From: a virus
Taxonomy: Duplodnaviria; Heunggongvirae; Uroviricota; Caudoviricetes
IMG/VR virus record: IMGVR_UViG_2839610755_000009
Strand: one strand, 5' to 3'
DNA: 55,878 nt
The translations under genes and the position numbers were made by a program. Under the pieces are notes generated by a model, which was not told the DNA's origin, did no database searches, and was given only the letters and a program-made list of their open reading frames with translations. How positions within the stretch are numbered: the first letter of the stretch is position 1; each line of letters starts with the position of its first letter. Positions 43,314 to 50,544 of the stretch are shown in pieces.

Positions 43314-43730
43314 GTGTCTCAACCACTTTCGGAAATATTGACATGGGATGATGAACAATGGGAGGTATTTGTCCATGATTGGCTTATTGTCTGTAAATCA
43401 GATGATTACCCGTGGAGCGAACGTTTGGGAGGAGCTGGAGATAAAGGTAGAGACGTTGTTGGATATAAATCGGATCCTAACGTAGAAGGTTATTCTTGGG
43501 ATAATTATCAATGCAAACTGTACAAAAAAAGTTTAGGGTTCTCTGATGTTGTAGTTGAGTTTGGAAAACTTATCTATTTTACTCTGAATGGTGATTATCC
43601 CATCCCTCAGAAGTACTTTTTTGTGGCACCCTATGATTTATCTACTACATTTTCTAATTTATTGAAAAATAAAAACGAGCTTAAAAAAGCAGTCCTTGAT
43701 TCATGGGATTCAGCAATTTCAAAAAAATAA
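43314..43730 (+). CDS. cargo ORF A: PD-(D/E)xK-like nuclease domain (candidate effector N-terminus)
   Basis: 138 aa, GTG start 7 nt after AAGGAG; GGAGDKGRDVVGY ... YQCKLY resembles Mrr/NERD-type motif. Confidence 0.5.
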   Translation: MSQPLSEILTWDDEQWEVFVHDWLIVCKSDDYPWSERLGGAGDKGRDVVGYKSDPNVEGYSWDNYQCKLYKKSLGFSDVVVEFGKLIYFTLNGDYPIPQKYFFVAPYDLSTTFSNLLKNKNELKKAVLDSWDSAISKK

Positions 43731-44320
43731 CTAAAAAGATTGATATTCCATTAGATGATGAAATAAAAAAATATATTGAGGATTTTGATTTTAGTATTTT
43801 TTACTCTCTACCCTTATCATTGATTTTAAATGATATTGCAAATACACACCTTTATTTTAAGTACTTTAACGAGCTGTATGTCGTGAGAATCCCTCCAAAT
43901 GAAATTCCAACATACAATTCAAAAAAAGAGTCTGTATATGTTAATGCACGGCTTCAAGCCTATTCAGAGCATGGAAATAAAACTTATAGTTCTTTCTTAG
44001 AGCTTGATGATCCATACAGACGACACTTTAATAATAGTAGAAATGATTTTTATTTTGCATCTTCGCTTGAGGTTTTTGTCCGCGAAGTATTTAAAGATGA
44101 TGTATTCAAAGCATTGAAATGTTACATTTCATCTTCAATTGAACCCGTCTTTTATGAAGACCATAATTATGCATTTATTAGGTGTAATGCAGTCTTGAAG
44201 CAGGCTGTTCTGACACCAATTGCACATTCAGTACTATCAAAAATATGTGAAGCAAATGATAAAAAAGGAATATGCCATCATTTGGTTAATGATGGTGAAG
44301 TAATTTGGACGGTGAGATAA
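43703..44320 (+). CDS. cargo ORF B: probable C-terminal continuation of ORF A
   Basis: 205-aa ORF overlapping A by 28 nt, no SD; joins A by -1 shift at A7 tract. Confidence 0.45.
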   Translation: MGFSNFKKITKKIDIPLDDEIKKYIEDFDFSIFYSLPLSLILNDIANTHLYFKYFNELYVVRIPPNEIPTYNSKKESVYVNARLQAYSEHGNKTYSSFLELDDPYRRHFNNSRNDFYFASSLEVFVREVFKDDVFKALKCYISSSIEPVFYEDHNYAFIRCNAVLKQAVLTPIAHSVLSKICEANDKKGICHHLVNDGEVIWTVR

Positions 44321-44778
44321 TGGTTAGAATTTATAATTCAAGTTTAGAAGTGGCATGTCGAATGGCGAAAGTGCTCGTCGCTATTTATCCTTCTTCATTA
44401 AGCCTTGAACGGCTTATTTGTTTTGATTTTATTTTAGTAAATCTTAAGGATTTTTTACCTGAAGAGATTAGTCTTCATCCTCCAATACCCCGTAGAGATG
44501 CTCAGTTAGCCCTAAAACGAGAGATTGTTTTAGAATCATTGGCTTTGTTGCAAGGCTATGAACTAGCCTCAAAAATTTATACACATCGTGGTTTTGTATA
44601 TAAAGCTTCTGAAAAAACATATGCATTTACAAATTCTCTACATAATGAATATGTTGCGCAGATGGAGCATAATATAAATTTGGTGGTTAAGTTATATAGT
44701 GATATTCCTGATGAGCAGTTGCAATCAATTATAAAAAATAAAATTGGCAAATATGATATGGAATTTAATTATGAATGA
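44320..44778 (+). CDS. cargo ORF C: small helical protein (candidate middle component)
   Basis: 152 aa from ATG overlapping upstream stop (TAATG). Confidence 0.5.
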   Translation: MVRIYNSSLEVACRMAKVLVAIYPSSLSLERLICFDFILVNLKDFLPEEISLHPPIPRRDAQLALKREIVLESLALLQGYELASKIYTHRGFVYKASEKTYAFTNSLHNEYVAQMEHNINLVVKLYSDIPDEQLQSIIKNKIGKYDMEFNYE

Positions 44779-45403
44779 CAATTTTTTTACGTTCAGAAAA
44801 ATAAAGGTAACCGGATTCAATAAATTAGATGCTATAATTGAATTTGGTTCTAAATTGACTATTTTATATGGTGGTTCTGACTCTGGAAAAACATACATAT
44901 ATTATTTGATTCGATATTTATTAGGGAGTGAAAAACTAAAAAATAAAGATATCGATCATGCTCAAGGTTATGATTTAGCCTATCTGGAATTTAATTTTCA
45001 AGGTAGGGTAATGACAATTGAGAGGTCTCTTCAGGATAGCGCCCATTACAGATTATATGATTCGAGCATTGAAAATGTTAGTGAAGCTAATCTGTTGATG
45101 GTTTTTTCCAAAAGTGCTTCGTCTAAAAAGAGTTTTTCATCATACTTTTATGGTAGGTTGAATTTCAAAGAGGCTAAAGTAAGAACAAACTTAAGTAATA
45201 CTCTTCATAAATTTAATCTTAATAATGTTTTTGAATTTTTTTGTATTGATGAATTAAGAGTGTTAACTGAGAAGTCGTTAATTCTTTCTGATATTCCTAG
45301 CGAGGAGACAAAAAGAAAGTCTGAATTTAAATTCCTTTTAACTCAGAGAGATGATACTAACTCCTTAGCAGAAAAACCAAATAAAAAAGCAAGATATTTT
45401 TAA
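44771..45403 (+). CDS. cargo ORF D: ABC/SMC-like ATPase N-terminal head (Walker A)
   Basis: P-loop ILYGGSDSGKTYIY; ATGAATGA overlap with ORF C. Confidence 0.55.
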   Translation: MNDNFFTFRKIKVTGFNKLDAIIEFGSKLTILYGGSDSGKTYIYYLIRYLLGSEKLKNKDIDHAQGYDLAYLEFNFQGRVMTIERSLQDSAHYRLYDSSIENVSEANLLMVFSKSASSKKSFSSYFYGRLNFKEAKVRTNLSNTLHKFNLNNVFEFFCIDELRVLTEKSLILSDIPSEETKRKSEFKFLLTQRDDTNSLAEKPNKKARYF

Positions 45404-47277: not shown

Positions 47278-47829
47278 TTACTCCTGCATGCCGTTAATGT
47301 AATCCAGACGTTGCTGAAAGCGCAGTTGTTGTGCAGGGGTGTAAGAGCTCTGGCAATCACGAACCATCATGGGGTCAGGCATCACACCGGATTCATCCAG
47401 AATCATACGATAATCCCCGGCAATTTCAGGCGGTGTTATTGCCAGCTGGCGAACCAGAGCATTGCGTAATATACGGGACGCAACGTCAACCCCTCCGCGC
47501 CCCTTCAGGAACGGAGCCAGTGCAGATGTCAGGGCTGCTCCATTCGCCTGCATAAAATTGCTGAGAGCGTCTTCTGTGCAGGCCTCCATCAGTTGATGCT
47601 GCGAGTAAATGCATTCGCGCGCAGCACAGTTAATTTGCCATTTCAGCACATCCAGATGTTCCCGCTGTAATTCGAGCTGTCGAGCATAATCTGCTGGTTT
47701 TTCCATGGCAGTGAGGAGTGATTCTATCTGTTGTTCAACGGCTTTTCGGCTCTCACTATGTCCAGCCCACAGAATACGGGCATTTCTAAAACTGATAAGC
47801 GCTTGGTCTGGAGTGACTCGGGCCATCAT
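47278..47829 (-). CDS. Psu-like (polarity suppression) protein
   Basis: 183 aa, P4 psu position and size. Confidence 0.65.
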   Translation of the reverse strand: MMARVTPDQALISFRNARILWAGHSESRKAVEQQIESLLTAMEKPADYARQLELQREHLDVLKWQINCAARECIYSQHQLMEACTEDALSNFMQANGAALTSALAPFLKGRGGVDVASRILRNALVRQLAITPPEIAGDYRMILDESGVMPDPMMVRDCQSSYTPAQQLRFQQRLDYINGMQE

Positions 47830-48578
47830 ACTGCTTTCTCCTTCTCAGCACGTTCCTGACGAACCTTCATTTTATGCATAGCTGCTGGAGAGAGTTTATT
47901 ACTGAAATCCAGACGGGCCGCATAATCCGGGGCAACTCCCGCCAGTTTAAACACGGGGTCCTGTTCGGGCATCGCATCGTTAGTCAGAGCCGGTCTGGTG
48001 ATATGTTTATGAATAAAATCTTTCAGCAGTGTGTCCGGGTCATTAACTGAATGCACCACACCGACAACTGCGCTGGCTTCCCTGCCCATTGTTGATTTGA
48101 GCAGGCTTAGTGTCTGGATTAGTGCTTTTCCATGCGACTGCATAAAATCTTCCCAGATTTGTTTTGCGCGAATACCCACAAGGGTGTCGTGCGCGTGGAT
48201 ATACTTTCCGGCTAATTCCGCAGCCTCCTGCGGCAAAAGTGCATTTTCGCTTTCCTGAGCCGCCAGCAGCTCATCAAAATCCTCAAGCGTTTCTCGTCCC
48301 AGCGCAATTTCCGTGCGCAGTTTTTTCATTTCCTTTGAGACTACGCCCTGACTTTCACGAAATAGCGTGCGCCACTCCTCATTCAGGGCGTTCGTCGTGG
48401 CTTCCATTTCAGCGCGGCGCTGGCGGATTGTCGCAATATTATCCGCTGCCGCTTTTTGCTGACGACGTGCTTCAAGCCATGCAGATTTGGTGGCATTCAC
48501 TTTCTCAAGCGCCTGTTGCGTCGAAACAGGGATAGAAATTTCAACGATCGGGTTATTGTTCTGTTCTGGGATTGTCAT
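47826..48578 (-). CDS. Sid-like capsid size determination protein
   Basis: 250-aa helical protein upstream of psu in the same operon. Confidence 0.55.
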   Translation of the reverse strand: MTIPEQNNNPIVEISIPVSTQQALEKVNATKSAWLEARRQQKAAADNIATIRQRRAEMEATTNALNEEWRTLFRESQGVVSKEMKKLRTEIALGRETLEDFDELLAAQESENALLPQEAAELAGKYIHAHDTLVGIRAKQIWEDFMQSHGKALIQTLSLLKSTMGREASAVVGVVHSVNDPDTLLKDFIHKHITRPALTNDAMPEQDPVFKLAGVAPDYAARLDFSNKLSPAAMHKMKVRQERAEKEKAV

Positions 48579-49511
48579 GTCAGCACCTAGTGGTTTGTCG
48601 TGGTGTCAATTGTGCTGTGATGCATACAAAGCTGCCATTGAACGCCATTGTGCGAGCGACAAGACAAAGACTGAACCGCCCCGGACCTCTTTTGGCTAGC
48701 CAGAAAAGGCCTCGTTTAACTAAGGCTGTTTCAGACTTACCTTAACTATTCACTACTATTCACTTAGGTAAAAAAAATAGGTAATACAGAAGGTTATAAG
48801 GTGAAGGGTTGGCATGGCAGTATTCATCGACTGTTCATAACTGTTCACATGGGAATAAAATTATTTATGGTATTTTTTCATAATGGGTGGTTTTTTTATT
48901 CCTCGTAGCTATTTGTTTTTTGCTCCTCACCACTATTCACCCTTATTCAGGAGTATTCAACAGGCACATAAATAGACTGCATGTTTTTGCCGGGGAATAA
49001 CATTTTCGCCTCTGGCCATGGTGTTGCATTTCATACTGATTTTTATAAAACTAGATCTGTCCGGTTCTTTATGGATTCATTCGGATATATTTTACGATTT
49101 AAGGTGATGTTATTTAATATCAAGGTTTTTATGCAGGCCCAATGTTTATAAGTTGGATGCGATTCAAAAATATGCCCGGAAATTGGGGCCTGCAATGCAA
49201 GGCCTCGTGTAGAAGTTGTACTGCCTTGCTGTATTGGCGGTGGGGTTAGCACTATCAGGTGCAATGACCCATAGGATAGTAAACCCTGGGTGAATGGTAG
49301 TTCCTATTAATGCTCCTGTATTTATAGTCCGCAGGCATGGTATTTATTATGTCATTTTATATGGTTTAATCGGGCTTTAAATTCCATAAAATCAATATGT
49401 GACGCTAAATAAAAAATGCGTGCGCAGGTGGTTTATATACACATAATAAGGAACTACCTGAACCCGGATAAATTCATCCGGACTGTTGTGGAAATTAAAG
49501 AGGGTAGATAA

Positions 49512-49772
49512 ATGCGTAATATTTCTGTGTCTGCGCCAGCTCCTGCTGCGCCATTATTTCCTGTATCGAACCATCATGAGCGATTTTTACGCCTGCCTGA
49601 GGTGATGCACTTATGCGGGTTGTCCCGTTCGACCGTTTACGACCTGATCAGCCGCGATGCGTTTCCGAAGCAGATCCCGCTTGGCGGTAAAAATGTCGCC
49701 TGGGCACAGTCTGAGGTCAGCGCATGGATGGCGGACCGCATCAGCGCCCGTGGGCGGGGATGTGATGCATGA
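49512..49772 (+). CDS. alpA: AlpA-family transcriptional regulator
   Basis: 86 aa; [50 protein letters not shown]. Confidence 0.8.
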
Positions 49773-49900
49773 TGATACCTGCATACATTAAATACCTTTA
49801 TTCTGGCTTGCTTACTGTCGTCATTTCCAGGTATAGTTTTTCCGCTGTCGCAAAATCGGCAGCCGGAATTGGCGTTCCGTATAACTTATTGGCGACAATT

Positions 49901-49922
49901 GACGCCCCTTGCGTCTTTTTTT
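49901..49922 (+). terminator. rho-independent terminator after alpA
   Basis: GACGC-CCCTT-GCGTC hairpin followed by T7. Confidence 0.65.
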
Positions 49923-49949
49923 ACGTCGTAGCTCAGGCACAACCATTTT

Positions 49950-50110
49950 CAGGGCTGTGGTGTTTATGCTTACACCATGGTTCTATCGAGATAATGGTAG
50001 TCCGGGCGGGGCAGCCTTCGGGCTGGCCGGTTTCCAATAAGGCCGGTTACGCCAACCCCGTTCGGGCTGCCACCAGTGAAATTGGCGTTTCCGGTGGTAG
50101 CAATAACCGC
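49950..50110 (+). ncRNA. candidate structured RNA (P4 CI/C4-like immunity RNA region)
   Basis: ORF-poor stretch with consecutive hairpins (GCAGCCTTCGGGCTGGC, CCGGTTTCCAATAAGGCCGG, GCTGCCACCAG...CCGGTGGTAGC). Confidence 0.3.
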
Positions 50111-50131
50111 TACTTATTGGAGGCTGCCATC

Positions 50132-50326
50132 ATGGCTACAATCCTCACCCCGTCACACCCGCAATATGTCTTTGTGTTTGCCGCAATCCGCCGTGCTGAC
50201 ACTCACCCCCGCATCTGTATGCTTCGCACTGTCTCCTGCGATGAGCGTTCCGCGCGCCGTTTGCTAGTCCGAGATTATGTACTCTCCCTTTCTGCACGGC
50301 TGCCTGCCGGGGAGGTGACGCTATGA
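50132..50326 (+). CDS. small hypothetical protein
   Basis: 64 aa from MATILTPSH with GGAGG SD. Confidence 0.5.
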
Positions 50327-50544
50327 ACCAGTTTGAGATTTCCTACGACGATGTTGTAAGGCTGAAACATTTACGCAATGTGGGTGAGTATGTAACTGGC
50401 ATGGCAGCCCTGCAGGACTGTTATGAAAAGCCAGCAGGTGCCCAATGCGAACAACTGGTTTCCCTCATTTATCTGATGACAGAGCAACTGGATGGAGTGG
50501 TGCAACGCTGCCATGACGACCTGATGAATGCGGAGGTGGCCTGA
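50323..50544 (+). CDS. hypothetical protein
   Basis: 73 aa, ATGA coupling. Confidence 0.45.

Follow-up and report, generated by a model that had tools for sequence, protein, structure and literature searches.

Comparative sequence analysis points to a P4-type RNA immunity switch nested in a conserved open reading frame of a satellite prophage of Escherichia coli O157:H7

The hairpin-rich stretch at positions 49923-50131 of the window, i.e. of the complete 55,878-nt sequence of IMG/VR record IMGVR_UViG_2839610755_000009 analyzed here, is, as judged by comparative sequence analysis, the RNA switch that controls immunity in a P4-like satellite prophage of Escherichia coli O157:H7 and a direct homologue of the CI RNA of phage P4 together with its target sites. 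With a probability of about 0.87, it is part of the immunity cassette of an Sp2-type satellite that is homologous part by part to the PLE-seqA-CI-seqC-kil/eta region of P4 and in which, by analogy with P4, the transcript from an internal promoter would represent an untranslated RNA switch and the transcript initiated upstream of alpA a translated frame that overrides it. 'ORF or RNA?' would then be the wrong question, since the same DNA would act as an untranslated switch on one transcript and as a translated frame on another. The cassette is an intact, real and well-understood kind of element that has already been catalogued: the system is known from the Sp2-type prophage of strain Sakai, and Rfam lists both C4 and isrK in EDL933. 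Known P4 biology is left unchanged by these results.

RNA elements of the cassette and their pairing partners

Folding of the region 49923-50131 yielded a minimum free energy (MFE) of -95.2 kcal/mol, compared with -71.3 +/- 4.7 kcal/mol for 200 dinucleotide shuffles (z -5.06), none of which was as stable. The structure is thus real, its stability lying far outside what chance would give, which bears out the initial annotation in its description of GC-rich hairpins extending over approximately 200 nt. The MFE fold comprises three elements: a first hairpin (about 49951-49985), a branched structure (49995-50072) and a further hairpin (about 50083-50129) in which the Shine-Dalgarno sequence (SD) of the following gene is buried. 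All features described below are located on the plus strand. The first hairpin falls into a variable spacer (49923-49989) that is characterized by the highest column entropy of the region and by in-frame indels; as an alifold analysis of 78 distinct rows provided no consensus structure, it was rejected as a functional element for want of a conserved structure in the relatives.

An Rfam scan of the whole window detected the isrK family (RF01394) at positions 49844-49921 with a score of 71.9 bits (gathering score 50), directly in front of the hairpin-rich stretch. This isrK/seqA-type leader RNA consists of two hairpins, a linker and an intrinsic terminator, and across 108 loci 93% of the cells are paired, with compensatory changes at seven pairs including the terminator stem. 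The terminator at 49901-49922, which lies within the isrK model, is composed of a 5-bp G+C-rich stem (49901-49915) and a run of seven T residues (49916-49922); the stem pair 49901-49915 occurs as GC in 74 loci and as CG in 29. The last base of the terminator, 49922, directly precedes the hairpin-rich stretch, just where the initial annotation had placed a terminator. With a permissive scan, the c4-a1b1 family (RF03163, 'a1, b1 targets of C4') was additionally matched at 49831-49883 with 44.6 bits, slightly below its gathering score of 46.7. Weak matches to snoU105B, CRISPR-DR22, IS009 and adapt33_3 were far below the respective gathering scores and were dismissed.

Upstream of the leader, a putative constitutive internal promoter resembling PLE of P4 was assigned to positions 49808-49837 by reading of the sequence and by its invariance with P4. 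The candidate comprises the -35 hexamer TTGCTT (49808-49813), an 18-nt spacer and the -10 hexamer TATAGT (49832-49837), and both hexamer regions are invariant in the pairwise alignment of the window with P4. Transcription is predicted to start at about 49844, which is also where the isrK model begins (position 1). A scan of the window with the sigma-70 consensus did not call this promoter.

The second element of the fold corresponds to a C4-family antisense RNA at 49990-50077, the homologue of the P4 CI RNA. The match to RF01695 is of full length (model positions 1-87 of 87) and reaches 84 bits with an E-value of 4e-15 (gathering score 45). The Rfam scan that had been proposed as a check of the initial annotation thus placed both C4 and isrK above their gathering scores, in agreement with its suggestion of a small regulatory RNA of the kind involved in P4 immunity. 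The RNA shows the typical C4 shape, with a long closing stem (49995-50072) enclosing two inner hairpins. Across the 108 loci, 99.6% of the cells are paired over 27 pairs and four stem pairs display compensatory double changes, the inner hairpins being invariant by construction of the data set; the pair 50004-50063 is GC in 63 loci and AT in 40. Two recognition segments were delineated, namely the loop 50033-50041 (UCCAAUAAG) and the multiloop junction 50049-50055 (ACGCCAA). A CCACCA-type tail at the 3' end suggests, by comparison, that the RNA is processed like P4 CI and P1 c4.

Each recognition segment has two complementary sites on the same transcript, one on either side of C4, as is characteristic of the P4-type arrangement. 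The junction 50049-50055 is matched by UUGGCGU in the loop of the second leader hairpin (49869-49875, upstream target 1) and by a seqC-like copy of the same motif at 50082-50088 (downstream target 1), and the loop by CUUAUUGG at 49885-49892 (upstream target 2, complementary to 50034-50041) and by CUUAUUGGA at 50113-50121 (downstream target 2), which overlaps the SD. All four complementarities are perfect over 7-9 nt, and the sites are arranged in the antiparallel order that pairing needs.

The conservation of these contacts was assessed in loci retrieved from IMG/VR by means of an exact 23-nt C4-core pattern, which together with the window, P4 and a locus from Phytobacter, the only one returned by a scan of genome contigs with the 64-aa protein encoded downstream, gave 110 distinct sequences; owing to the exact core pattern this set is biased towards close relatives, and since the loci are related to one another the counts do not represent independent events. 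The set contains 29 loop types and 12 junction types in 47 combinations. In 90-98% of the 110 loci, an exact complement spanning 7 nt or more was present both upstream and downstream, compared with 4-8% of deliberately mismatched RNA/flank pairs. Individually, upstream target 1 co-varies with the junction in 98% of the loci (4.5% in mismatched controls) and downstream target 1 in 97% (4.2%), whereas upstream target 2 co-varies with the loop in 90% (6.7%) and downstream target 2 in 93% (7.6%). These data provide strong comparative evidence that the loop, the junction and their targets represent functional contacts.

The kil start site and the long eta-like frame

The third element of the fold contains an SD-sequestering hairpin at 50089-50123, in which the anti-SD UUCC (50089-50092) pairs with GGAG (50119-50122) and the 3' arm holds downstream target 2. 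At least three quarters of the SD are paired in the MFE fold of 72 out of 73 distinct homologous leaders, and a consensus pairing of anti-SD and SD was found. The SD itself, GGAGG at 50119-50123, is located 8 nt before the ATG at 50132, which is aligned in 100 of the 103 homologues and is preceded by a GGAG-type SD among the common contexts listed. The gene starting there (50132-50326) encodes a protein of 64 aa that forms the C-terminal part of a longer, eta-like frame and matches the NCBIfam model NF033153 (phage_ICD_like, 'host cell division inhibitor Icd-like') with 66.9 bits. It shares 81% identity with P4 kil (8365-8177) and 44% with N15 gp32 and PY54 icd. Column entropies of 0.59, 0.53 and 1.08 for codon positions 1, 2 and 3 in the segment 50132-50323 indicate that the coding unit under amino-acid selection starts at 50132, precisely the start, with its GGAGG, that had been predicted in the initial annotation.

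The complete eta-like ORF extends over 185 aa from an ATGATG start (49769-50326) and accommodates the promoter, both RNA elements and kil in a single frame. In RefSeq it is designated 'Icd-like protein' (WP_000973389.1), and its only NCBIfam match is the Icd-like model, running through residues 133-179 within the 64-aa C-terminal part. Codon periodicity is absent upstream of 50132, as positions 1, 2 and 3 vary equally in every sub-segment of 49769-50131. The column entropy of the spacers amounts to approximately 1.0 and is about as high as that of kil third positions, and the conservation upstream of kil is concentrated at RNA stems, loops and targets.

The kil frame is nonetheless free of stop codons from the internal promoter to the kil ATG in 97 of the 102 distinct loci with kil, 96 of which also differ in length by a multiple of three. 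In the other two frames, which contain a mean of 2.2 and 4.5 stops, a stop-free stretch was found in three loci and one locus, respectively, so that both are closed in at least 97%. The depletion of stops pertains to every sub-segment, fast-evolving spacers included, with 4-9 stops in frame 0 and 18-179 in the other frames. The net length difference relative to the window is a multiple of three in 99 out of 108 loci, and those with an out-of-frame length mostly lack a kil homologue or contain a divergent kil; five loci with a kil homologue (35-78% identical) carry stops in the eta frame. The frame is preceded by an alpA/vis homologue of 86 aa (49512-49772; Pfam Phage_AlpA, 70.3 bits; 63% identical to P4 ORF88), the TGA stop of which (49770-49772) overlaps the eta-like start. 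This overlap, which reads ATGA, is present in the window and in 76 of 98 loci.

Thus, what is maintained is the openness of the frame and its coupling to alpA, and the encoded amino-acid sequence upstream of kil is not under selection. According to these alignments the eta frame is conserved as an open frame and not as a protein sequence, i.e. for being translated and not for what is encoded, and the 185-aa ORF is probably a real translated frame corresponding to P4 eta rather than an annotation error. The initial annotation had regarded the first part of this ORF as implausible, which holds with respect to the missing codon periodicity before 50132 but not with respect to the frame being open in 97 of 102 loci, to the in-frame indels and to the ATGA coupling; conservation of the long ORF in homologues, named there as the observation that would speak against this view, was found for the open frame and not for the protein sequence. 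Its assumption of a simply untranslated stretch has to be revised in view of the conserved, alpA-coupled frame and of P4, for which, according to PMC10111431 (citing Forti et al. 1999), translation of eta occurs only on transcripts from the upstream late promoter and in coupling with the alpA homologue. PMC10111431 further describes kil as the terminal part of eta, the constitutive promoter as internal to eta, and translation of eta itself as preventing termination and being needed for read-through.

In the P4 sequence, three ATG codons open an eta frame of 197-199 codons (198 from the middle ATG) that aligns with the 185-aa ORF of the window. Forti et al. 1999 are reported to have given lengths of 197-199 aa for eta and 65 aa for kil, in agreement with the three ATG codons and the 198-codon frame read in P4.

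A model of the switch can be built on the homology, the RNA family membership, the covariation of structure and targets, the frame conservation and the start-stop coupling observed in these loci, when promoter activity, RNA processing, Rho dependence and anti-termination by translation are adopted from P4 by analogy. In the prophage, the constitutive promoter inside the eta frame, with its -10 at 49832-49837, would direct synthesis of an untranslated leader. Part of the transcription would end at the intrinsic terminator and give rise to an isrK-like RNA of about 77 nt, and read-through transcripts would be processed, as in P4, into a stable C4/CI RNA approximately 80 nt long that extends from 49995 to about 50076. 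The hairpin loop and the multiloop junction of this RNA, both of which are exposed, would pair with two bipartite targets, one in the leader (49869-49875 plus 49885-49892) and one before kil (50082-50088 plus 50113-50121) that overlaps the SD. C4 pairing and the SD-sequestering hairpin would keep kil, the first gene to be translated from the internal promoter, untranslated; the naked RNA would then be terminated, at the Rho-dependent timm in the case of P4, and the downstream primase gene would remain silent. Upon firing of a late promoter upstream of alpA, ribosomes finishing alpA would restart at the overlapping ATG of the 185-codon frame and translate through leader, terminator, C4 and targets. 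By analogy with P4, this translation would block RNA structures, pairing and termination, and the replication genes would be expressed despite immunity.

The proposed repression follows the description of P4 in PMC4825925, where the CI RNA arises by processing of a transcript that is not translated and, through pairing with seqA and seqC, brings about premature termination; IsrK and C4 are regarded by Barquist et al. (PMC3632133) as structural homologues of P4 seqA and CI RNA. A PLL-like late promoter is weakly suggested by the motif TGT-N12-AAA at 49398-49415 upstream of alpA, where P4 has TGT-N12-ACA, the spacing to the candidate -10 being 5 nt shorter. Activator sites of the exact form TGT-N12-ACA were not enriched in the window (8 found, 14.3 expected), and none was present directly upstream of alpA.

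Genomic context and recognition specificity

The segment is widely distributed in E. coli, with matches in 989 of 5426 complete genomes. The 15 best-matching genomes carry it at 100% identity, as do many E. coli O157:H7 chromosomes, and an identity of at least 99% was reached by 307 records. Annotation was taken from NZ_CP030767.1, which contains identical DNA at the satellite and is not collinear with the window upstream of it. The RefSeq gene order of the satellite is integrase, defence cargo (an ABC-three-component system), ogr/delta-like, psu, sid-like, alpA-type regulator, Icd-like, small ORF, DUF5375 and primase, and neighbouring cargo genes are annotated as frameshifted. In the window itself, Pfam matches were obtained for integrase, Psu-like, AlpA and DUF5375 proteins and an NCBIfam match for a P4-family primase. 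Around the cassette the order int, cargo, delta/ogr, psu, sid, alpA, cassette, DUF5375 and alpha primase is the same as in P4. The gene set of P4-like satellites (int, delta/ogr, psu, sid, alpA and alpha primase in P4 order) is thus present, with epsilon absent, and the counterpart of the satellite in strain Sakai is the 'P4-like prophage Sp2' (PMC2669165).

A comparison with P4 revealed that positions 49825-50330 match the P4 immunity region at 75% nucleotide identity over 83% of the length, exactly over the DNA labelled 'cI gene product (AA 1-137)' in GenBank. The order of promoter, leader hairpins, terminator, C4-type RNA, downstream target, SD and kil is shared, and the conserved blocks comprise the promoter hexamers, the two leader hairpins with the terminator, the C4 stems, the SD and the kil start. 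P4 likewise yields Rfam matches to isrK and C4, the latter with 74.9 bits compared with 84 bits in the window, its eta also begins with ATGATG over the alpA/vis stop, and the flanking genes are the same. Differences were noted in the spacer, which is 39 nt shorter in the window, in the length of eta (185 codons versus 197-199 in P4) and downstream of the cassette, where the window lacks epsilon and orf151 and contains instead a 73-aa ORF (phrog_10110). Moreover, P4 has different sequences at all six recognition and target places, which are again mutually complementary: its loop reads UCCUGUGAA and its junction UUCUCAC, in place of the loop sequence given above and ACGCCAA in the window. As the recognition segments and the four targets differ, an immunity specificity different from that of P4 is predicted.

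The loop and the junction would be separately varying modules that constitute a combinatorial code among P4-like satellites and some lambdoid phages, with reassortment of a module needing coordinated change at three interleaved sites. Their sequences could serve as predicted immunity types of P4-like satellites. The Pfam family Phage_ASH (PF10554) covers residues 22-132 of the 185-aa ORF with 104.6 bits; it matches exactly the RNA-coding stretch both in the window and in P4, the epsilon protein of which matches PF25738, and several PHROG families named 'transcriptional regulator' cover the same stretch. Amino-acid-level purifying selection was not detected over the PF10554 stretch, where the codon positions vary equally, and the frame of the Ash family appears to be kept open for translation as such and not for a protein domain. 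We consider the odds about even that a two-module heteroimmunity code and an interpretation of PF10554 and the PHROG families as the translated shadow of an RNA cassette hold jointly. Both points are only mildly new, going beyond the statements found in the literature consulted.

For annotation purposes, a survey of P4-like satellites used PF10554 as an 'epsilon' marker (PMC8628076); Phage_ASH matches in satellite and phage surveys probably indicate the immunity cassette instead of an Ash or epsilon protein. The locus, for which RefSeq at present provides one 185-aa 'Icd-like protein' over the whole cassette, should carry a C4/CI RNA gene, an isrK/seqA leader, a short kil/Icd-like CDS and the long eta frame.

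Alternative explanations and related immunity systems

The lack of codon-position periodicity upstream of 50132, the restriction of the sole NCBIfam match to the last 64 residues and the coverage by two Rfam families would fit a purely non-coding region 49769-50131, consisting of a leader and a small RNA, with the 185-aa ORF being a gene-caller artefact that is open by chance. P4 offers a precedent, as the annotation of a 'cI protein' was historically wrong and the immunity factor is an RNA (PMC4825925). This explanation is very improbable, however, with a frame that is open in 97 of 102 loci, the two others being closed in no less than 97%, with stops depleted even in fast-evolving spacers, with indels in multiples of three in 99 of 108 loci and a conserved ATGA overlap with alpA, and with a P4 eta that is reported as translated and needed for read-through (PMC10111431, citing Forti 1999). 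Hardly credible is the converse proposal that the long ORF encodes a functional Ash/Eta domain as its main product and that the RNA-like structure is secondary. It could draw on the 104.6-bit PF10554 match to residues 22-132, on the PHROG 'transcriptional regulator' families over the same stretch and on the N-terminal position of this stretch in a 340-aa protein annotated as Ant/Rha in an Stx1a phage, but the three codon positions vary equally, the spacers (about 1.0) come close to kil third positions (1.08), conservation is concentrated at RNA stems, loops and targets, and a protein function would not explain why loops and targets co-vary as nucleic-acid complements.

Two further alternatives accept the RNA elements and differ in what they do. 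In the logic of IsrK of Salmonella prophage Gifsy-1, the leader RNA (49844-49921) would act in trans or titrate C4 and thereby activate kil, the SD hairpin being opened on the read-through transcript so that kil and the downstream genes are translated. The leader matches isrK over the full length and possesses a terminator of its own; it shares both target motifs with the kil leader and could therefore act as a C4 decoy; furthermore, the SD is sequestered even without C4, and such a mechanism is described for Salmonella (PMC4825925). That this logic dominates is unlikely, since the locus is much closer to P4 (75% at the nucleotide level, 81% for kil), where CI repression is documented, and since the two modes are not exclusive and could coexist with one another. 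It is also quite improbable that the cassette has no present regulatory activity and persists as an inert remnant of a cryptic prophage. The Sp2 element of Sakai showed no excision or circularisation, replication or packaging upon induction (PMC2669165), so that the element may be silent in practice, and the neighbouring cargo genes are annotated as frameshifted. Yet every element of the cassette is intact, including a C4 that scores higher than that of P4 (84 versus 74.9 bits), four perfect targets, the SD and ATG and the eta frame, and the segment is invariant in the 15 best-matching genomes and at least 99% identical in 307 records. The P4-type switch on an untranslated transcript, overridden by translation from upstream of alpA, remains the preferred interpretation.

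Related cassettes are known from other phages and plasmid-prophages. The immI region of P1 and P7 (c4, a1/b1 and a2/b2 targets, icd, ant) includes an RNA of the same RF01695 family, to which the near-threshold a1/b1 match in the window can be added, as well as an Icd-like first gene with a target-covered ribosome-binding site and bipartite recognition by two RNA segments. The loop and junction sites may be mapped onto P1 a' and b' by analogy only. P1 Icd itself gave no tblastn match at E <= 1e-3, the link being provided by the profile match, and no Ant, Rha or Bro domain was found after the Icd-like gene, which is followed by the 73-aa ORF, DUF5375 and the primase. The P1-type immI layout with its ant gene is thus not reproduced, and the output of the window is the primase operon of the satellite. 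The secondary immunity regions of N15 and PY54 (CA RNA, icd and ant genes), annotated as 'cA secondary immunity repressor' or 'icd', were compared through their Kil/Icd homologues (44%); they belong to linear plasmid-prophages with an antirepressor output and are far more divergent.

The IsrK/STnc1160/orf45-anrP region of Gifsy-1 resembles the window in having an isrK-family leader with a terminator, a subsequent processed RNA of about 80 nt and a structured, translationally inactive first ORF (PMC4825925). In Gifsy-1, however, the short RNA acts as an activator, with an antirepressor/antiterminator cascade of a lambdoid prophage as the output; a nested eta-type frame coupled to alpA is not described there. 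Finally, the Stx1a phage LC567819 contains isrK (1399-1475) and C4 (1500-1587) inside an open 340-codon 'Ant' ORF, in which the internal '...EAAIMAT' start is conserved and a Rha-type antirepressor (Phage_pRha) follows instead of Kil. The occurrence of the isrK-C4 pair inside this Ant ORF indicates that the cassette is portable and that the effector behind it varies.

The Phage_ASH match over the RNA cassette

In the window, in phage P4 and in locus L125, the matches of the Pfam model PF10554 ('Phage_ASH') and of PHROGs 6928, 3960, 821 and 995 fall exactly on the DNA for the isrK leader RNA (49844-49921 in the window) and the C4 antisense RNA (49990-50077 in the window). The matched stretch at 49832-50164 corresponds to amino acids 22 to 132 of the 185-aa eta-like open reading frame (49769-50326) and is devoid of codon periodicity. 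Since the matches coincide with the isrK and C4 DNA and codon periodicity is absent there, the PF10554 'protein family' looks like a translated shadow of the RNA cassette. The epsilon protein of P4 itself is matched by PF25738 and not by PF10554, the model that was chosen as epsilon marker in PMC8628076. The eta frame contains two to seven stop codons in five loci (L031, L051, L074, L079 and L107), all of which carry a kil/Icd homolog with 35-78% identity. Accordingly, the RNA cassette exists without a long open frame in some lineages.

Combinations of loop and junction segments

The C4 regions of the IMG/VR loci L004 to L122 yielded 47 combinations of the loop and junction specificity segments (29 loop types and 12 junction types), which are located in the window at 50033-50041 and 50049-50055, respectively. 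The sites of the two modules are interspersed along the DNA: a junction target and a loop target come first, the loop and then the junction follow, and a second junction target and loop target come last; consequently, swapping a single module needs a coordinated change at three separated places.

Genes and sites of the satellite

The position of epsilon and orf151 in P4 is occupied in the window by a 73-aa open reading frame (50323-50544; phrog_10110) that gave no match in Pfam and NCBIfam and the start of which overlaps the kil stop codon (ATGA, 50323-50326). Two TGT-N12-ACA dyads (48611-48628 and 48649-48666), which precede the sid-like gene (47826-48578, minus strand) by 33-88 nt, are similar to the Ogr/delta-activated late promoter sites of P2 and P4, whereas the perfect P4 dyad aligns upstream of alpA with only an imperfect TGT-N12-AAA (49398-49415). 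The cargo separating psu from the satellite integrase (43703-45403) carries the annotation of an ABC-three-component defence system, one gene of which is frameshifted according to RefSeq, and its position matches that of the defence hotspot of P4-like satellites in PMC9122126.

The neighbouring prophage

The P4-like satellite lies in tandem with a largely complete contractile-tail prophage. In this region (1369-41200), a tRNA-Thr gene (anticodon CGU, 1369-1441) precedes an integrase gene (1459-2622, minus strand) and the prophage genes for TerL (18536), portal (20417), capsid (22249), sheath (25488), tape measure (27751), baseplate J (34324) and tail fibres. In strain 2017C-4109, only about 12 kb separate tRNA-Thr from the satellite integrase; the contractile-tail prophage is therefore variable among O157 strains. 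Two identical ALIL pseudoknot matches (17245-17361 and 33423-33539, minus strand, 121.5 bits each), beside 296-aa open reading frames at 16429-17319 and 32607-33497, respectively, are part of two copies of an IS3-family element inserted in this prophage, annotated in RefSeq as IS1203/IS629-like.
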